From: Halarcobacter sp.
Lineage (GTDB): Bacteria > Campylobacterota > Campylobacteria > Campylobacterales > Arcobacteraceae
NCBI GenBank assembly: GCA_963676565.1
Contig: OY781089.1
Coordinates: forward strand, 1,344,001-1,408,000
Length of the DNA: 64,000 nt
Direction: 5' to 3'
Below the pieces are notes generated by a model. The model searched no databases and was not told the DNA's origin. It saw only the letters and a program-made list of their open reading frames with translations. Made by a program: the position numbers and the translations under genes. Positions 6,809 through 24,689 of this stretch are shown piece after piece (the first letter of the stretch is position 1; the number at the start of each line of letters is the position of its first letter).

Positions 6809-6885
6809 TGGCGCGGTTGACGAGACTCGAACTCGCGACCTCCTGCGTGACAGGCAGGCATTCTAACCAACTAAACTACAACCGC
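6809..6885 (-). tRNA. tRNA-Asp(GTC)
   Basis: GCGGTTG...CCTGC CTGTCAC GCAGG...TTCGAG...CCA. Confidence 0.97.
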
Positions 6886-6901
6886 AACATTTTTAAATTG
6901 A

Positions 6902-6977
6902 TGGTGGTCGATATAAGACTCGAACTTATGACATCTACCTTGTAAGGGTAGCGCTCTACCAACTGAGCTAATCGACC
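6902..6977 (-). tRNA. tRNA-Val(TAC)
   Basis: Anticodon arm CTACC CTTACAA GGTAG; CCA end. Confidence 0.97.
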
Positions 6978-6978
6978 A

Positions 6979-7054
6979 TGGTGACCCGTGAAGGATTCGA
7001 ACCTTCGGCCACCTCCTTAAAAGGGAGATGCTCTACCAGCTGAGCTAACGGGTC
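6979..7054 (-). tRNA. tRNA-Lys(TTT)
   Basis: Anticodon arm CTCC CTTTTAA GGAG; CCA end. Confidence 0.97.
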
Positions 7055-7078
7055 GCTCATGAAATAAGTGTATAAAAG

Positions 7079-7155
7079 TGGCGCGGTTGACGAGACTCGA
7101 ACTCGCGACCTCCTGCGTGACAGGCAGGCATTCTAACCAACTAAACTACAACCGC
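7079..7155 (-). tRNA. tRNA-Asp(GTC)
   Basis: Identical to 6809-6885. Confidence 0.97.
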
Positions 7156-7169
7156 ACACTTATACATAT

Positions 7170-7244
7170 TGGTGACCCCTAGGAGACTCGAACTCCTGTG
7201 GCATGGATGAAAACCATGAATCCTAACCGCTAGATGAAGGGGCC
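7170..7244 (-). tRNA. tRNA-Glu(TTC)
   Basis: Anticodon arm CATGG TTTTCAT CCATG; CCA end. Confidence 0.97.
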
Positions 7245-7272
7245 AATATTATTAACAATAAACTTTAGTAAA

Positions 7273-7348
7273 TGGTGGTCGATATAAGACTCGAACTTAT
7301 GACATCTACCTTGTAAGGGTAGCGCTCTACCAACTGAGCTAATCGACC
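7273..7348 (-). tRNA. tRNA-Val(TAC)
   Basis: Identical to 6902-6977. Confidence 0.97.
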
Positions 7349-7357
7349 TTTATATGA

Positions 7358-7432
7358 TGGTGACCCCTAGGAGACTCGAACTCCTGTGGCATGGATGAAA
7401 ACCATGAATCCTAACCGCTAGATGAAGGGGCC
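7358..7432 (-). tRNA. tRNA-Glu(TTC)
   Basis: Identical to 7170-7244. Confidence 0.97.
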
Positions 7433-7449
7433 AATATCAATATAAAAAA

Positions 7450-7525
7450 TGGTGACCCGTGAAGGATTCGAACCTTCGGCCACCTCCTTAAAAGGGAGAT
7501 GCTCTACCAGCTGAGCTAACGGGTC
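7450..7525 (-). tRNA. tRNA-Lys(TTT)
   Basis: Identical to 6979-7054. Confidence 0.97.
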
Positions 7526-19893: not shown

Positions 19894-20871
19894 ATGAATA
19901 GAATTTATGACATAGCTGTGATTGGTGCGGGACCTGCAGGAATTGCAACTTCATGTGAAGCAGTAATTTTTGGTTTGAAAAATATTTTAGTTTTAGAGAA
20001 AAGTGATAACCACTCAGATACTATTAGAAAATATTTTAATGATAATAAACCAGTTGATAAAGACTGGAAAGGGATTCAAGTAGACCTTAAGGGTCATATT
20101 GACTTTGAAGATGGAACTAAAGAGAGTACTTTAGATCTTTTTGATGATGCTTTAGAAAAAAATCTTATAAATGCACGATTTAATACTGAAGTTTCAAAGG
20201 TTAAAAAATATGGTAACTTGTATAAAGTTATTACTACAAACAAAGAGATGTATTTAGCAAAAAATATTGTTGTTTCAATTGGTAAGATGGCAAAACCTAA
20301 TAAACCAAGTTACAAAATACCATCAACTCTTAGAAAAAAAGCAAATCATACAATTGCAGATTGTAAAGGAAATGAAGAAGTTTTAGTTGTTGGTGGTGGA
20401 GATAGTGCCTGTGAATATGCATATTTTATTCATCAAGATAATATGGTTACATTTAATTACAGAAAAGAAAAGATAACTAAAGCAAATCCAAAAAACGTAA
20501 AAAATTTAATGAATTGTGCACAAGATGGTGAGATTAATCTGATGTTAGGAGTTGATATTGAAAAAGTTGAAGATGAAAATGGACAGTTCAAAGTGTTTTA
20601 TACAAATGGAGAGATTAAAAAATATGATAGGATAATTTATGCTTTAGGTGGAATGACACCAAAAGAGTTCTTGAAAAATTGTTGTGTCCTTTTAGATGAA
20701 CACGATAAACCAATTGTAGATGAACATAATTTAAACTCAGAAGGTATCTATTTAGCAGGTGACATTGCTGGGGATATTGGTGGCTCTATTGCTCTAGCAT
20801 TAAATCATGGATACAATATTATTAAAGATTGTGTTTATGAAGATGAAATACACCATGCAATAAGTGCATAA
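19894..20871 (+). CDS. fqrB: NAD(P)/FAD oxidoreductase, FqrB/TrxB-like (flavodoxin reductase type)
   Basis: GAGPAG, DKDWKG..LKGHI, GKMAKPNKP, GGGDSA, GSIALALNHG; no catalytic CxxC; matches recalled Helicobacter FqrB. Confidence 0.75.
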   Translation: MNRIYDIAVIGAGPAGIATSCEAVIFGLKNILVLEKSDNHSDTIRKYFNDNKPVDKDWKGIQVDLKGHIDFEDGTKESTLDLFDDALEKNLINARFNTEVSKVKKYGNLYKVITTNKEMYLAKNIVVSIGKMAKPNKPSYKIPSTLRKKANHTIADCKGNEEVLVVGGGDSACEYAYFIHQDNMVTFNYRKEKITKANPKNVKNLMNCAQDGEINLMLGVDIEKVEDENGQFKVFYTNGEIKKYDRIIYALGGMTPKEFLKNCCVLLDEHDKPIVDEHNLNSEGIYLAGDIAGDIGGSIALALNHGYNIIKDCVYEDEIHHAISA

Positions 20872-20897: not shown

Positions 20898-21782
20898 TTA
20901 TTGGAAGAAGTTTTTAAGCTCTTCGATAACTTCTTTTGGTTTTTCCTCAGGTAAAAAATGTCCACAGGGAAGTGTCTTACCCCGTACATTATTTGCATAA
21001 TCTTGCCAAACTTTTATAACATCATAGGTTTTATTTACAAAACCTTTTTCTCCCCATAAAACCAATAATGGAGTATTTAATTTCCTATTTCTTGTCTTTT
21101 CATCATCTATCATATCAATTGTTGCACCTGCTCTATAGTCTTCACAACTTCCATGAATTGAAGCTTCATCATAACATTTTATATATTCTTCTACTGCTTT
21201 TTTATCGAATTTATCTTTAAAAGGAGTATCTTTATCACTCCACCTTTTAAGTTTCTCTTTTAAATAATAAGCTGGGTCATCTCCTATCATCTTTTCAGGC
21301 AAGCCATCTGGCTGAATAAGAAAAAACCAGTGGTAATATCCAGTTGCAAAAGATTGATTAGTATTTTTAAACATATGATATGTGGGAGTTATATCCATTA
21401 TACAAGCTTTCAAAATTTTATCTTCATAATCTAAACACATTCTATGGGCAACTCTAGCACCTCTATCATGACCTGCTATATAAAACTTTTTGAAACCTAA
21501 ATGATTCATTAACTCAATCATATCTTTTGCCATGACTTTTTTAGAGTAATTTGAATGGTCATCTAAGCCCTTTGGTTTAGAACTTTTTCCATAACCTCTT
21601 AAATCGGGACAAATTACATAAAAATATTTTGAAAGTTCATTTGCAACTTTATGCCACATAACATGGGTTTGAGGGTATCCATGAATTAGAAGTAAAGGTT
21701 GACCAAAGCCCCCATGTCTAAAGTTAATTTCTATTTTATTGGATTTGATTTTTTCTTCTTTAAAAGTTTGATTAAAAAGCAT
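20898..21782 (-). CDS. Alpha/beta hydrolase, fluoroacetate/haloacetate dehalogenase-like
   Basis: HGYPQT, GHDRGARVAHR, MDITPT, YYHWFF, CEDYRAGA, CGHFLPEE. Confidence 0.88.
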   Translation of the reverse strand: MLFNQTFKEEKIKSNKIEINFRHGGFGQPLLLIHGYPQTHVMWHKVANELSKYFYVICPDLRGYGKSSKPKGLDDHSNYSKKVMAKDMIELMNHLGFKKFYIAGHDRGARVAHRMCLDYEDKILKACIMDITPTYHMFKNTNQSFATGYYHWFFLIQPDGLPEKMIGDDPAYYLKEKLKRWSDKDTPFKDKFDKKAVEEYIKCYDEASIHGSCEDYRAGATIDMIDDEKTRNRKLNTPLLVLWGEKGFVNKTYDVIKVWQDYANNVRGKTLPCGHFLPEEKPKEVIEELKNFFQ

Positions 21783-21852
21783 AAAAATCCTTTTTGGAAA
21801 ATTTTACTTAAAAATCATAAAAAGTACAAAACTATGGATTGAATTCTGTGTT

Positions 21853-22506
21853 TTATTTAGTTCTATTAACTTTTCGTTCTAAATGTTTAGCGAAAATTGC
21901 TATTGTGTATGTCATTATAAAATAAAAAACTCCAAGTGTTAAATATATTTCAAAAGGTTCATAAGTTCGTACATATATAAGTTGACCTGCCCTTGTTAAT
22001 TCAGTTATTGAAAGAACTGAAACTAGTGAACTATCTTTTAAAATAGATGCATAGGTATTTGTAAGTGGAGGTAAGACTATTTTAAGTGCTTGCGGATAGA
22101 TTATATGTATAAACATCTGAATTTTACTAAGTCCTAAGGAATTTGAAGCCTCATATTGTCCTTTTGGTATTGCTTGAATTCCAGCTCTAACAATTTCAGC
22201 CATATATGCACCAAAATTTAAAGACAAACCTATAATAGCAGCTTGATGACTTGACATCGTAATACCAATTTGTGGTAGGCCATAATATATAAAAAATAGT
22301 TGAATAAGTAAAGGTGTTCCTCTAAAGATTTCAATATATGAGCTGATTAAAAACTTGATAAAATAGTTTGTCTTTAAGCTTCTTAGCGTACCCACAATTA
22401 CACCAATAAATAGTGCAATTACAAAAGATACAAAAGAGAGATAAATTGTAAGCCATGAGGCTTCTAAAAGAAACCCCAAGTTATCAAAAACAGCGTTAAA
22501 ATTCAC
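21853..22506 (-). CDS. Polar amino acid ABC transporter permease
   Basis: RGTPLLIQL, AEIVRAGIQAIPKGQYEA, LKDSSL; GTG start. Confidence 0.93.
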   Translation of the reverse strand: MNFNAVFDNLGFLLEASWLTIYLSFVSFVIALFIGVIVGTLRSLKTNYFIKFLISSYIEIFRGTPLLIQLFFIYYGLPQIGITMSSHQAAIIGLSLNFGAYMAEIVRAGIQAIPKGQYEASNSLGLSKIQMFIHIIYPQALKIVLPPLTNTYASILKDSSLVSVLSITELTRAGQLIYVRTYEPFEIYLTLGVFYFIMTYTIAIFAKHLERKVNRTK

Positions 22507-23232
22507 TTATTTTACTGCCAGCCATTTGTTAATTAATTTCTCGTAAGTACCGTTATCTTTTAAAGTTTTTAAAGCCTCATTAACTTGTTTTGTTAAATCA
22601 TCTTTTCCTTTTTTCATAACAACAACTAATTCTGCCGGTGCTAGTTTATCAACAATTTTATATTCACTATTAAAATCTTTTTGATTTAATGCATATGCAT
22701 ATCCAACTACAACAGCATCAATACGATTGTGTTTCAAATCTAAAAATGCTTCTGGATTATAGTTATATCTAGCTACTTTTCCAAGTCCAGTTAATTTATC
22801 AACAACTTGTTCACTTCCACTTCCAAGTTGAACACCAACAGTTTTACCAGCTAAATCTTTTTGTGAATTGATTTTATCATTATCTTTTTTTACTATTAAT
22901 ACATCATTTAGTAAGTAATAAGTATCTGATAAATTTACATTGTTTTCACCTGCTTCTTGTCTACTCATAGCACTTAATATAATGTCATAGTTGTCATTTT
23001 TAAGTCCACCAAGTAGAGCTTGCCACTCTGCATCTTTAATTTCAACTTTTTTACCAATGATTTTACCAATTTCATTTGCTAAATCGATATCAAAACCAAC
23101 AATATTTCCACTTTTTTCATCTCTTGATTCAAATGGTGGATACGCTGCACATAAACCAACTGTAATAACATCTTGTTGAGCATTTGCAAATATACCAAAT
23201 GTTAACAATAAGCCTGCAAAAAATTTTTTCAT
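22507..23232 (-). CDS. Polar amino acid ABC substrate-binding protein (SBP family 3)
   Basis: Signal peptide, YPPFE, GFDIDLA, GVQLGS. Confidence 0.93.
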   Translation of the reverse strand: MKKFFAGLLLTFGIFANAQQDVITVGLCAAYPPFESRDEKSGNIVGFDIDLANEIGKIIGKKVEIKDAEWQALLGGLKNDNYDIILSAMSRQEAGENNVNLSDTYYLLNDVLIVKKDNDKINSQKDLAGKTVGVQLGSGSEQVVDKLTGLGKVARYNYNPEAFLDLKHNRIDAVVVGYAYALNQKDFNSEYKIVDKLAPAELVVVMKKGKDDLTKQVNEALKTLKDNGTYEKLINKWLAVK

Positions 23233-23780
23233 AAAAGTTCCTTTTGTATAGCCTTAACTAAGGCTGTTGGATTTTCTTCATCTAAAGCAAAAAAAGATAA
23301 CTCTAAATTGTTCTTTTTAAGTAATTTAAAAAACACTTCCATAAAAACGCCTGCTTCATTCACTGTTTGTAAAGAGTTTAACTTTTTTTCTAAATCAAAA
23401 GATTTATCTATCTCACCTTTCCAATTAGCTCTGCAGGTTTTATTTATGCCACAATTTGGACTTCCATCTATACCAATGCAGCCTTTAATTTCATATCCAT
23501 TATTTTTATAATCAATTATCTGATTTATAATAGGAAGTAGCATTTTTTTGTATTGTTTTTTATATATTGCTGTATCGTATTGTTCTTTTACCATTCCCCA
23601 TCTATTAACCCCACAGGTTAGCATTTCTGGACATGGTAATTGCAAAATTCCGTAACCTTTATCACATAAAGAAGTAACAAGTTCAGATATACACCCGCTA
23701 TAATTAGCTAAGGAATAAACTTTTGCATTAGAATTAAGTATACAATGACTTAAAAGAATGATTTTTTTGCTTCGATTCAT
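23229..23780 (-). CDS. TudS-related (DUF523-like, CD3072-type) putative Fe-S desulfidase
   Basis: SHCILN, QLPCPEM...GVNRW, GIDGSPNCG, GVF; ATGA overlap with the SBP gene. Confidence 0.8.
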   Translation of the reverse strand: MNRSKKIILLSHCILNSNAKVYSLANYSGCISELVTSLCDKGYGILQLPCPEMLTCGVNRWGMVKEQYDTAIYKKQYKKMLLPIINQIIDYKNNGYEIKGCIGIDGSPNCGINKTCRANWKGEIDKSFDLEKKLNSLQTVNEAGVFMEVFFKLLKKNNLELSFFALDEENPTALVKAIQKELL

Positions 23781-23876
23781 GAAAACCTCAATTAAATATA
23801 AGTTTTCCTAAAAAGCAGTGTTGACAAGAAAAGCTATGTTGTCATTCCAAACCTTGGAACTTGCTTAATTTTAGAA
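23781..23876 (-). promoter_or_regulatory. Structured 5' leader, candidate riboswitch
   Basis: Stems UUCCAA/UUGGAA, UGACAA/UUGUCA and AAGCA/UGCUU, plus an SD-sequestering GAAAACUU/AGGUUUUC hairpin. Confidence 0.55.
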
Positions 23877-24020
23877 TATAGAATTTTAGTTAACAAAAAC
23901 TTAATACTAGTTAAATTAATGACTCATTAATATATTTTTTATATTAATATATTTTATCAAGTGGATATTAAATCCACTTTTAATAATCTTCCATAATTTT
24001 AAAAAATAAATGGGTAAAAG

Positions 24021-24689
24021 ATGCGACTTCTTGTTAAAAGTGTATTGATTTTAATGTTAATTTTCACATCGACTTTAATTTTAATAAAGTTTAGTGGAGT
24101 ATTGACTGTTTCTGATATAAAAGAGGTTTTTGAAGTTTTAAAATCTCAACCATCATATATTTTAGGCTTTTTGATTATATTTTTACTTTTAGTAGATTTA
24201 TTTATTGCAGTGCCTACAATGACAGTAATAATTCTTGCAGGGTATTTTTTAGGTTTTGAATTAGCATTTTTATACACCTTTTTGGGGCTTTTATTGGCTT
24301 CTTTTACTGGATATTTTTTGTCAAGAAAATATGGTTTAAAAATTTTAAATAGATTAACGTCAGACCAAGAACAAATTGAGCAAATGAAAGATTTATTTAA
24401 TAAACATGGAATCCTAGTACTAATTTTATCAAGAGCAGTACCTATGCTTCCGGAGATTTCAGCTTGTTTAGCAGGAACTTGCAGTATGTCAATAAAAAGA
24501 TTTTTCATTGCTTGGTCATTGGGAACAATACCATATTTATCTGTAATTGCATATGCAGGCTCAATAAGTGATTTAGAAAATCCTATGCCCGCAATTTACG
24601 GTGCCATTGGTATTACTATAAGCTTTTGGTTTTTGTGGATGATATTTTTAAAAGCAAACAAAATAAAATTAAAAAATCAAAAAAATTAA
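24021..24689 (+). CDS. TVP38/TMEM64 (VTT/DedA superfamily) membrane protein
   Basis: Multi-TM; AVP...AGYFLG, SRAVPMLPE. Confidence 0.85.
   Translation: MRLLVKSVLILMLIFTSTLILIKFSGVLTVSDIKEVFEVLKSQPSYILGFLIIFLLLVDLFIAVPTMTVIILAGYFLGFELAFLYTFLGLLLASFTGYFLSRKYGLKILNRLTSDQEQIEQMKDLFNKHGILVLILSRAVPMLPEISACLAGTCSMSIKRFFIAWSLGTIPYLSVIAYAGSISDLENPMPAIYGAIGITISFWFLWMIFLKANKIKLKNQKN

Follow-up and report, generated by a model that had tools for sequence, protein, structure and literature searches.

Whether an operon for uptake and desulfuration in Halarcobacter sp. is controlled by a sensor built into its own messenger RNA (mRNA) is the question raised by the locus considered here. The locus lies in a stretch of 64,000 nucleotides (nt), hereafter the window, whose coordinates are used throughout; both the operon and the leader that precedes it are on the minus strand. 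An earlier interpretation made from the letters alone, referred to below as the sequence-only reading, proposed that the leader is a candidate riboswitch and possibly a translational ON switch. Comparison across related genomes confirms that the leader element is real and conserved, and it is probably an undescribed, narrowly distributed cis-regulatory element and a riboswitch candidate, which most likely governs how the operon is translated. The description of a conserved, structured-looking 5' leader on an operon encoding a TudS-related protein, a substrate-binding protein, and a permease is upheld by a match of 193 bits to the profile NF045597 and by the conserved upstream block.

The letters of the minus strand from 23875 to 23778 agree exactly with those given by the sequence-only reading, with the ATG at 23780, and the parts read 5' to 3' as UCUAAAAUUAAGCA-AG-UUCCAA(GGU)UUGGAA-U-GACAA(CAUAGCUUUUC)UUGUC-AACAC-UGCUUUUUAG-GAAAACUU...GAGGUUUUC-AUG. 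The parts are named here for their predicted pairing: a closing helix (P1) and the two hairpins inside it (P2 and P3). Alignment of 14 of the 15 leaders known from the family leaves 49 of 139 columns invariant. These fall in the clusters TTAAG, TAnAAT, UUAAGY, UUCCAAGGNUUGGAAYGACA, UGUC, RCUU, AAACU, and AGGUUUU; UUAAGY is listed as invariant, yet one leader (G095) has CAAAG at this place. From TTAAG to the ATG the mean pairwise identity is 0.71 (minimum 0.60), as compared with 0.39 (minimum 0.19) for the 75–84 nt just upstream, in a comparison of 10 of the 14 sequences, the set without its three near-duplicates and a short contig. In the loop of P2 both G residues are invariant and only the third base varies, while the 11–15 nt between GACA and UGUC of P3 are not conserved in sequence. 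The element exceeds chance because it is conserved, not because the fold of a single sequence is unusual: the 116-nt leader alone gives z = -1.03, with 35 of 200 shuffles equally or more stable, which is not beyond chance, and the junction of the window alone gives z = -0.72.

The distribution of the element follows that of one gene. A survey of 184 genomes of the same family with NF045597 finds 14 with a match above the cut-off, and a fifteenth copy is truncated (G011). The same upstream block is present at 15 of 15 Arcobacteraceae loci that carry a CD3072-family TudS-like gene and at none of the loci of 10 distant metagenomic homologues (32–49% identity). Run over 151 genomes of the family, a covariance model derived from these 14 leaders returns 14 strong matches of 91–107 bits, one per genome and each directly upstream of the gene; two weak matches (33.0 and 30.8 bits) both lie inside open reading frames (ORFs) and are taken as false. 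In the genome of 3.34 Mb, a single exact copy of the P2 palindrome is present. From the survey and the covariance-model scan it follows that a carrier genome has one copy of the element, always with this operon, and that its range is limited to one bacterial family. A wider pattern scan for TTCCAAGGNTTGGAAYGAC, with one genome per species, gives 58 matches, of which 8 lie directly upstream of a homologue and 50 are unrelated and mostly coding; the records of the 8 leader matches are titled Arcobacter, Aliarcobacter, Malaciobacter, Halarcobacter, or Campylobacteraceae. Eight chance loci of this 19-nt pattern (L019, L028, L034, L036, L051, L054, L063, and L073), which come from unrelated phyla, appear by eye to share a conserved coding motif of the type ...SKVWND...

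The sequence-only reading likened the leader to the preQ1-II riboswitch. Searches of the sense strand against the 4227 families of Rfam 15, at gathering score and at E<=10, reveal no match of the leader at gathering score in the window, and none at E<=10 either in 23700–24100 or at 11 orthologous loci, preQ1 families included. No Rfam family is detected upstream of the 10 distant metagenomic homologues. The absence of a match indicates that the element is not preQ1-II, purine, or another class curated there. Known preQ1-II riboswitches are associated with genes for queuosine or for preQ1 transport and salvage, unlike the NF045597, SBP_bac_3, and BPD_transp_1 genes of this operon. The leader resembles them in being a small RNA with a sequestered Shine-Dalgarno sequence, and the suggested likeness itself amounts to one CUUAGCUUCUUU-like loop; the corresponding P3 loop is of variable sequence and length across the 14 leaders. 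The pseudoknot between the loop UUUUC and GGAAAAC, part of the earlier proposal, is feasible in just four leaders, those of the window and of three close relatives (-2.5 to -3.9 kcal/mol), where 14–24% of shuffled loops do as well, and it is absent from the other 10 leaders (-0.7 kcal/mol or weaker). The probability that the leader is a variant of preQ1-II or of any other known riboswitch class is next to negligible.

A search of full-text literature finds no paper that joins TudS, DUF523, CD3072, or thiouracil with riboswitches, and none that contains CD3072. Arcobacter and riboswitches occur together in four papers, of which Stav et al. 2019 (PMC6429828) is the relevant one. It offers a precedent for rare candidate structured RNAs confined to relatives of Arcobacter, with a passage that describes the majority of the new intergenic regions in Arcobacter sp. 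L as being of this kind. These unnamed motifs resemble the present leader in kind and distribution. They differ in gene context, as a DUF523/TudS, substrate-binding protein, or ABC (ATP-binding cassette) neighbor is named in no row among the 14 that Table S1d of that work gives for Arcobacter sp. L; this table by itself does not fully exclude an overlap.

The fold predicted for the leader is a small three-way junction. In the window, RNAfold forms the closing helix AAGCA/UGCUU, extendable by CUAAAA/UUUUAG, with the hairpins UUCCAA-GGU-UUGGAA and GACAA-loop-UUGUC inside P1; downstream, a GAAAACUU:AGGUUUUC hairpin covers the Shine-Dalgarno sequence up to the ATG at 23780. The two hairpins closed by AAGCA/UGCUU are those that the sequence-only reading had drawn. 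The RNAalifold consensus is likewise a three-way junction of P1 (AAGY/RCUU), P2, and P3 (GACA/UGUC), and when this domain is folded in isolation, 10 of 14 leaders adopt the junction as their minimum-energy fold. Within the resulting structure of 16 pairs, 96.4% of cells can pair, as opposed to 36–52% with slid partners. The fourth pair of P1 changes on both sides (CG in nine leaders, UA in three, UG in two); since the three UA rows form one clade, this two-sided change counts as a single event.

Several features bear on whether the element is an RNA or a site in double-stranded DNA. The spacers vary, with 11–15 nt between the halves of P3 and 3–7 nt from P3 to the P1 3' strand, and such variable distances between the invariant halves of P3 and of P1 are more readily reconciled with helices of RNA than with sites in DNA. 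G-U pairing is seen in five cells, where the opposite strand would have A-C mismatches; the invariant GG of the P2 loop breaks the dyad symmetry; and the three inverted repeats are arranged in the nested order of a junction. On the grounds of these variable spacers, G-U cells, asymmetric GG, and nested repeats, RNA is favored over double-stranded DNA. The stretch is probably a folded part of the leader mRNA, and that the element acts as RNA at all is reasonably probable in our assessment.

An RNA element has to be transcribed, and a promoter can be proposed immediately upstream. The putative -10 box reads TAAAAT or TAGAAT across the 14 leaders. In Campylobacter jejuni, according to a passage of PMC3847290, a gnTAnaAT box lies 4–8 nt upstream of 95.6% of start sites, without a -35 box. 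The TAnAAT at 23888–23883 fits this box and is accordingly interpreted as the promoter -10 element. Its position places the predicted start near 23874–23878, so that the whole junction would be transcribed. A leader peptide AUG-ACA-ACA-UAG was considered and rejected, as it exists in the window only; 12 of the 14 leaders, including that of the closest relative (G014), have ACG at the corresponding place.

With the start placed there, the perfect palindrome TTCCAA-N3-TTGGAA would lie ∼17–31 bp downstream, where a dimeric transcription factor could bind it as DNA and block or activate transcription, the RNA helices being by-products. Neither 6-bp arm varies among the 14 leaders, and no compensatory change is seen, as expected for base-specific contacts with a protein; the centers of the half-sites are 9 bp apart, and covariation at the RNA level is not significant. 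A regulon built on this palindrome is not found, however: the genome has no second copy of the exact site, near matches (<=2 mismatches) number 32 per strand, close to the 21 and 24 of the controls, and perfect TTCCAA-N3-TTGGAA sites elsewhere number two, both inside long ORFs. No transcription-factor gene is a conserved neighbor, as the flanks differ and none of the flanking genes examined is a regulator. An operator also leaves unexplained the asymmetric GG spacer, the variably spaced GACA...UGUC, the two-sided AAGY/RCUU change, and the invariant AAACU. The DNA operator is retained because P2 is a perfect invariant palindrome, as an explanation that we consider unlikely.

Part of the leader can also be read as a promoter. 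Extracytoplasmic function (ECF) sigma factors have the consensus -35 GGAAC and -10 GTC, which the leader approaches as GGAAY-N18-GTC, from the 3' arm of P2 to the 3' arm of P3, so that an ECF-type or sigma-54 promoter would start transcription near UGCUU. The spacing of 18 nt between GGAAY and GTC is seen in 10 of 14 leaders; over all leaders the distance varies between 16 and 20 nt. The single Sigma70_r2 match of the genome lies in a frame of 643 amino acids, the size of RpoD, and no Sigma70_r4_2 match exceeds the cut-off, the one weak match (19.5 bits) falling in an ORF of 202 amino acids that may encode a LuxR-type regulator. For sigma-54, a passage of PMC3847290 gives the motif GGaa-N6-tTGCTt at 8–13 nt upstream of the start. 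Inspected by eye, the window has CATAGC after GGAA-N6, with the GC 2 nt too far, and the GC is absent in most of the 14 leaders. Arcobacter butzleri is described in a published passage as unusually sigma-factor-rich. An alternative-sigma promoter, which leaves both the 5' arm of P2 and the invariant upstream TAnAAT unexplained, is very improbable.

If the element acts as RNA, its ligand need not be a metabolite. Ribosomal-protein leaders and CsrA-bound leaders are examples of mRNA operators that are bound by proteins, and the present leader shares with them a sequence-invariant hairpin beside the ribosome-binding site and the presence of GG both in the loop and in the Shine-Dalgarno sequence. 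CsrA is the obvious binder of a GG loop. The leader differs in that no match to CsrA (PF02599) is found in the genome, which is 99.97% complete, and that the P2 loop of the 14 leaders reads GGU, GGG, or GGC and never GGA; a CsrA-bound leader was rejected on these two counts. More generally, a protein could read the P2 hairpin and the junction with no direct binding of a metabolite, either as a product of the operon, for instance through autoregulation by the Fe-S TudS-like protein, or as an unlinked RNA-binding protein. The sequences of P2 and of the base of P3 are invariant while loops and linkers drift, and the element is present in one copy per genome tied to one operon, both of which agree with such a protein. 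A further point in its favor is that TudS relatives are reported in two papers to act on nucleotides and on tRNA (PMC10611767, PMC11417400). No candidate protein has been identified, however, and sensing by a protein is given a low probability, similar to that of the DNA operator.

How the junction could act on translation is suggested by the sequences on its 3' side. The invariant AAACU can pair with AGGUUUU in all 14 leaders, with energies of -3.8 to -7.2 kcal/mol, and burial of the Shine-Dalgarno sequence by a conserved upstream segment, another element of the sequence-only reading, is accordingly possible in every one of them. If P1 is prevented from forming in the model, its 3' strand turns to the start codon or the early ORF and thereby lengthens the hairpin over the ribosome site; the alternative partner is GAAGCA in the clade of the window and GCAC of AUGCAC in another clade. 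The ensemble states with P1 on and P1 off lie at most 3.6 kcal/mol apart. In 10 of 14 leaders, opening of the ribosome site is 1.7–4.7 kcal/mol costlier in the folding models with P1 off. This coupling was compared with that of 60 dinucleotide-shuffled tails per leader in 12 leaders, two near-duplicates being dropped; the fraction of shuffled tails that reach the observed coupling is <=0.07 in six of the 12 leaders and 0.10–0.20 in three. The models, built on sequences that are kin, point to a junction that is closed when translation is on.

The mechanism proposed on this basis would run as follows. Transcription would start near 23876 from the conserved TAnAAT promoter, and the first ∼65 nt would form the small three-way junction of P1, the invariant P2, and P3 with its free loop. 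Directly 3' of the junction, the invariant AAACU would pair with the AGGUUUU ribosome-binding site. The junction would be the sensor, most likely of a small metabolite linked to the substrate of the operon. With P1 closed, the P1 3' strand would be kept from the start-codon region and the weak A-U hairpin alone would cover the ribosome site, leaving translation on; with P1 open, the same strand would lengthen the hairpin across the start codon and turn translation off. The translational ON switch of the sequence-only reading is plausible to this extent, as the folding models favor the ON state with the closing helix formed, but the pseudoknot by which it was thought to operate is unsupported. 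The idea that AAACU pairs with an SD-like AAGGUUU inside P2 as a decoy was dropped by eye because the third base of the P2 loop varies.

A structured leader that does not switch could produce part of the same picture, by setting a fixed low rate of translation, by protecting the 5' end from RNase, or by serving as an RNA thermometer through the A-U-rich Shine-Dalgarno hairpin. In the clade of the window both modelled states contain this hairpin; it is rich in A-U pairs and weak across the energy range given above, and no ligand pocket is evident. Such roles, however, rarely need ∼20 contiguous invariant hairpin nucleotides or an invariant junction, and they sit poorly with an element restricted to one operon. 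We regard a static leader as distinctly unlikely.

The metabolite-sensing switch has to be weighed against a number of observations that count against it. The position of the transcription start is deduced from the -10 box, and a second -10-like box, weaker and less conserved, is present at 23868–23873; a start directed by the latter would fall inside P1. The predicted folds show no unusual stability (z from -2.36 to +0.02), and the probability of P1 is <=0.28 in 4 of 14 leaders. Among the 16 pairs of the consensus, 13 never vary, two vary one-sidedly, and one changes on both sides; covariation is not significant, as 48 of 500 shuffles reach the observed score. Covariation this thin does not prove the fold, and the comparison of orthologous leaders, named as a check by the sequence-only reading, yields a conserved block at 15 of 15 loci but no significant covariation. 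The invariant sequence of P2 suggests reading by a protein as much as a fold, and few unpaired nucleotides are conserved, unlike in most riboswitch pockets. The alternative helix of the P1 3' strand is equalled by 2–57% of control windows from the same genes (10–14% for the four 5-bp leaders of the window's clade and 2% for G006); the support for this helix is therefore weak. The coupling between P1 and the ribosome site is absent in 3 of 14 leaders and slightly reversed in one, and shuffled tails match it at fractions of 0.37–0.77 in 3 of 12 leaders. The carriers comprise about 15 species, many of them close kin, and no result points to any ligand, whether a thiolated base or another compound. 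Taking these points with the conservation, the pairing, and the modelled coupling, we assign a probability of roughly 0.4 to the leader being a metabolite-sensing translational switch as proposed.

The adenine (add) purine riboswitch is a translational ON riboswitch with a three-way-junction aptamer, and provides a useful comparison for the proposed switch. Both have two hairpins closed by a short P1 in the 5' leader, with the P1 3' strand adjoining a hairpin over the Shine-Dalgarno sequence and start codon, and in both closure of P1 eases the opening of the ribosome site, here in folding models. In contrast with the purine riboswitch, the leader has no Rfam purine match and no conserved loop-loop or junction nucleotides, its P3 loop and P3-to-P1 linker drift freely, and its P2 is invariant and not covarying, with covariation that is not significant. 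A more specific proposal is that the leader represents a new riboswitch class, confined to Arcobacteraceae, that binds the substrate of the desulfidase and importer, for example a thiolated base, a thiolated nucleotide, or an amino-acid derivative that carries sulfur, and turns on the uptake-plus-desulfuration operon. This proposal is doubtful; if true, it would make the RNA a direct handle on the substrate of the enzyme. To our knowledge, few regulatory RNAs have been described in Campylobacterota, and we know of no substrate for the CD3072 branch of TudS desulfidases. A leader conserved at all 15 loci with the gene is a concrete, testable entry point, and whatever flips it, metabolite or protein, is likely tied to the import and desulfuration carried out by the operon. 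If it is an operator or a static leader, it represents ordinary lineage-specific gene control. The features of the leader and operon are collected in Table 1.

Table 1. Features of the leader and the downstream operon, in window coordinates
Feature	Coordinates	Strand	Evidence or remark
TTAAG box, upstream of the -10 element	23900..23904	-	Invariant in 14/14 aligned leaders (columns T6 T7 A8 A9 G10)
Putative sigma-70 -10 box TAAAAT (TAnAAT)	23883..23888	-	T22 A23 A25 A26 T27 invariant in 14/14
Predicted transcription start zone	23874..23878	-	Inferred, 4-8 nt downstream of the conserved -10 box
P1 5' strand AAGCA (core AAGY)	23862..23866	-	Paired by RNAalifold with 23813-23817
P2 hairpin UUCCAA-GGU-UUGGAA	23845..23859	-	Six pairs and both loop G residues invariant in 14/14
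P3 hairpin GACAA-(11-nt loop)-UUGUC	23823..23843	-	GACA/UGUC invariant; loop drifts
P1 3' strand UGCUU (core RCUU)	23813..23817	-	Partner 23862-23866; in models alternatively 23768-23773 and the start codon
Anti-Shine-Dalgarno segment GGAAAACUU, invariant core AAACU (A105-T109)	23800..23808	-	Can form a duplex with the Shine-Dalgarno sequence in 14/14 leaders
Shine-Dalgarno GAGG and U-run (AGGUUUUC) up to the start codon	23781..23789	-	AGGUUUU conserved in 14/14; paired in the minimum-energy fold
GAAGCA, codons 3-5, possible alternative partner of the P1 3' strand	23768..23773	-	Pairing predicted in models with P1 blocked
CD3072-family TudS-related putative desulfidase gene, 183 amino acids	23229..23780	-	NF045597, 193.4 bits (cut-off 130)
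Amino-acid-type ABC substrate-binding protein gene, 241 amino acids	22507..23232	-	SBP_bac_3, E = 2.6e-36
ABC permease gene, 217 amino acids	21853..22506	-	BPD_transp_1

Further repeats occur in and near the leader. TTAAG forms a direct repeat with a distance of 36 nt between its copies at 23900–23904 and 23864–23868; the upstream copy does not vary in any of the 14 leaders, and the downstream copy, which overlaps the 5' strand of P1, has the one deviation in G095 (CAAAG). In the divergent intergenic region, nearer the DedA gene on the other side, lie an inverted repeat AAGTGGAT-N5-ATCCACTT at 23965–23985 and an AT-rich palindromic stretch (ATATATTAATATA...) at ∼23925–23955. Outside the window, both are seen only in G014, the closest relative, whose copy of the inverted repeat has one mismatch.

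The putative desulfidase scores just 21.6 bits against the Pfam model 2-thiour_desulf (PF04463), under the cut-off of 34.7, and a search of PDB sequences with the TudS-like protein returns no chain at E<=1. For TudS, a passage of PMC10611767 describes three cysteine ligands of a [4Fe-4S] cluster and a catalytic Glu and Ser, with Cys10, Cys43/Glu45, and Ser101/Ser103/Cys104 as the residues concerned. By eye and with no alignment tool, C13, C50-P-E52, and S107-P-N-C110 of the TudS-like protein match this pattern, the cluster cysteines and the Glu being retained and an Asn replacing the second catalytic Ser. In G011, a genome of the same genus, the TudS-like frame at this locus (contig C27, about ∼135861–136155 for the locus) is cut to 81 amino acids, of which residues 1–65 match; its leader is intact despite the shortened gene, at 91.5 bits with the covariance model.

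The nearest solved chains to the substrate-binding protein are binders of polar amino acids, and the best NCBIfam model for the permease is a cystine ABC permease at 206 bits, under the cut-off of 300. No gene for an ABC ATPase lies within the operon, either at 20898–23780 or in the loci of six other carrier genomes (L131–L136), all of which keep the first three genes. In fourth place the window has a gene for an alpha/beta hydrolase; three of these six loci have one for a TauE/SafE family protein there, and the remaining three have something unrelated. On the opposite side, a divergent gene for a DedA/VTT membrane protein occupies 24021–24689 on the plus strand. Thiol and redox genes often adjoin the operon, among them those for thioredoxin-like, AhpC/TSA, and glutathione peroxidase proteins, and the window has a pyridine-nucleotide disulfide oxidoreductase at 19894–20871. 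Farther away, at 6812–7525 on the minus strand, eight tRNA genes form a tight array that resembles a duplicated four-gene block, their scores pairing up as 74.8, 73.5, 70, and 51.7, each found twice.

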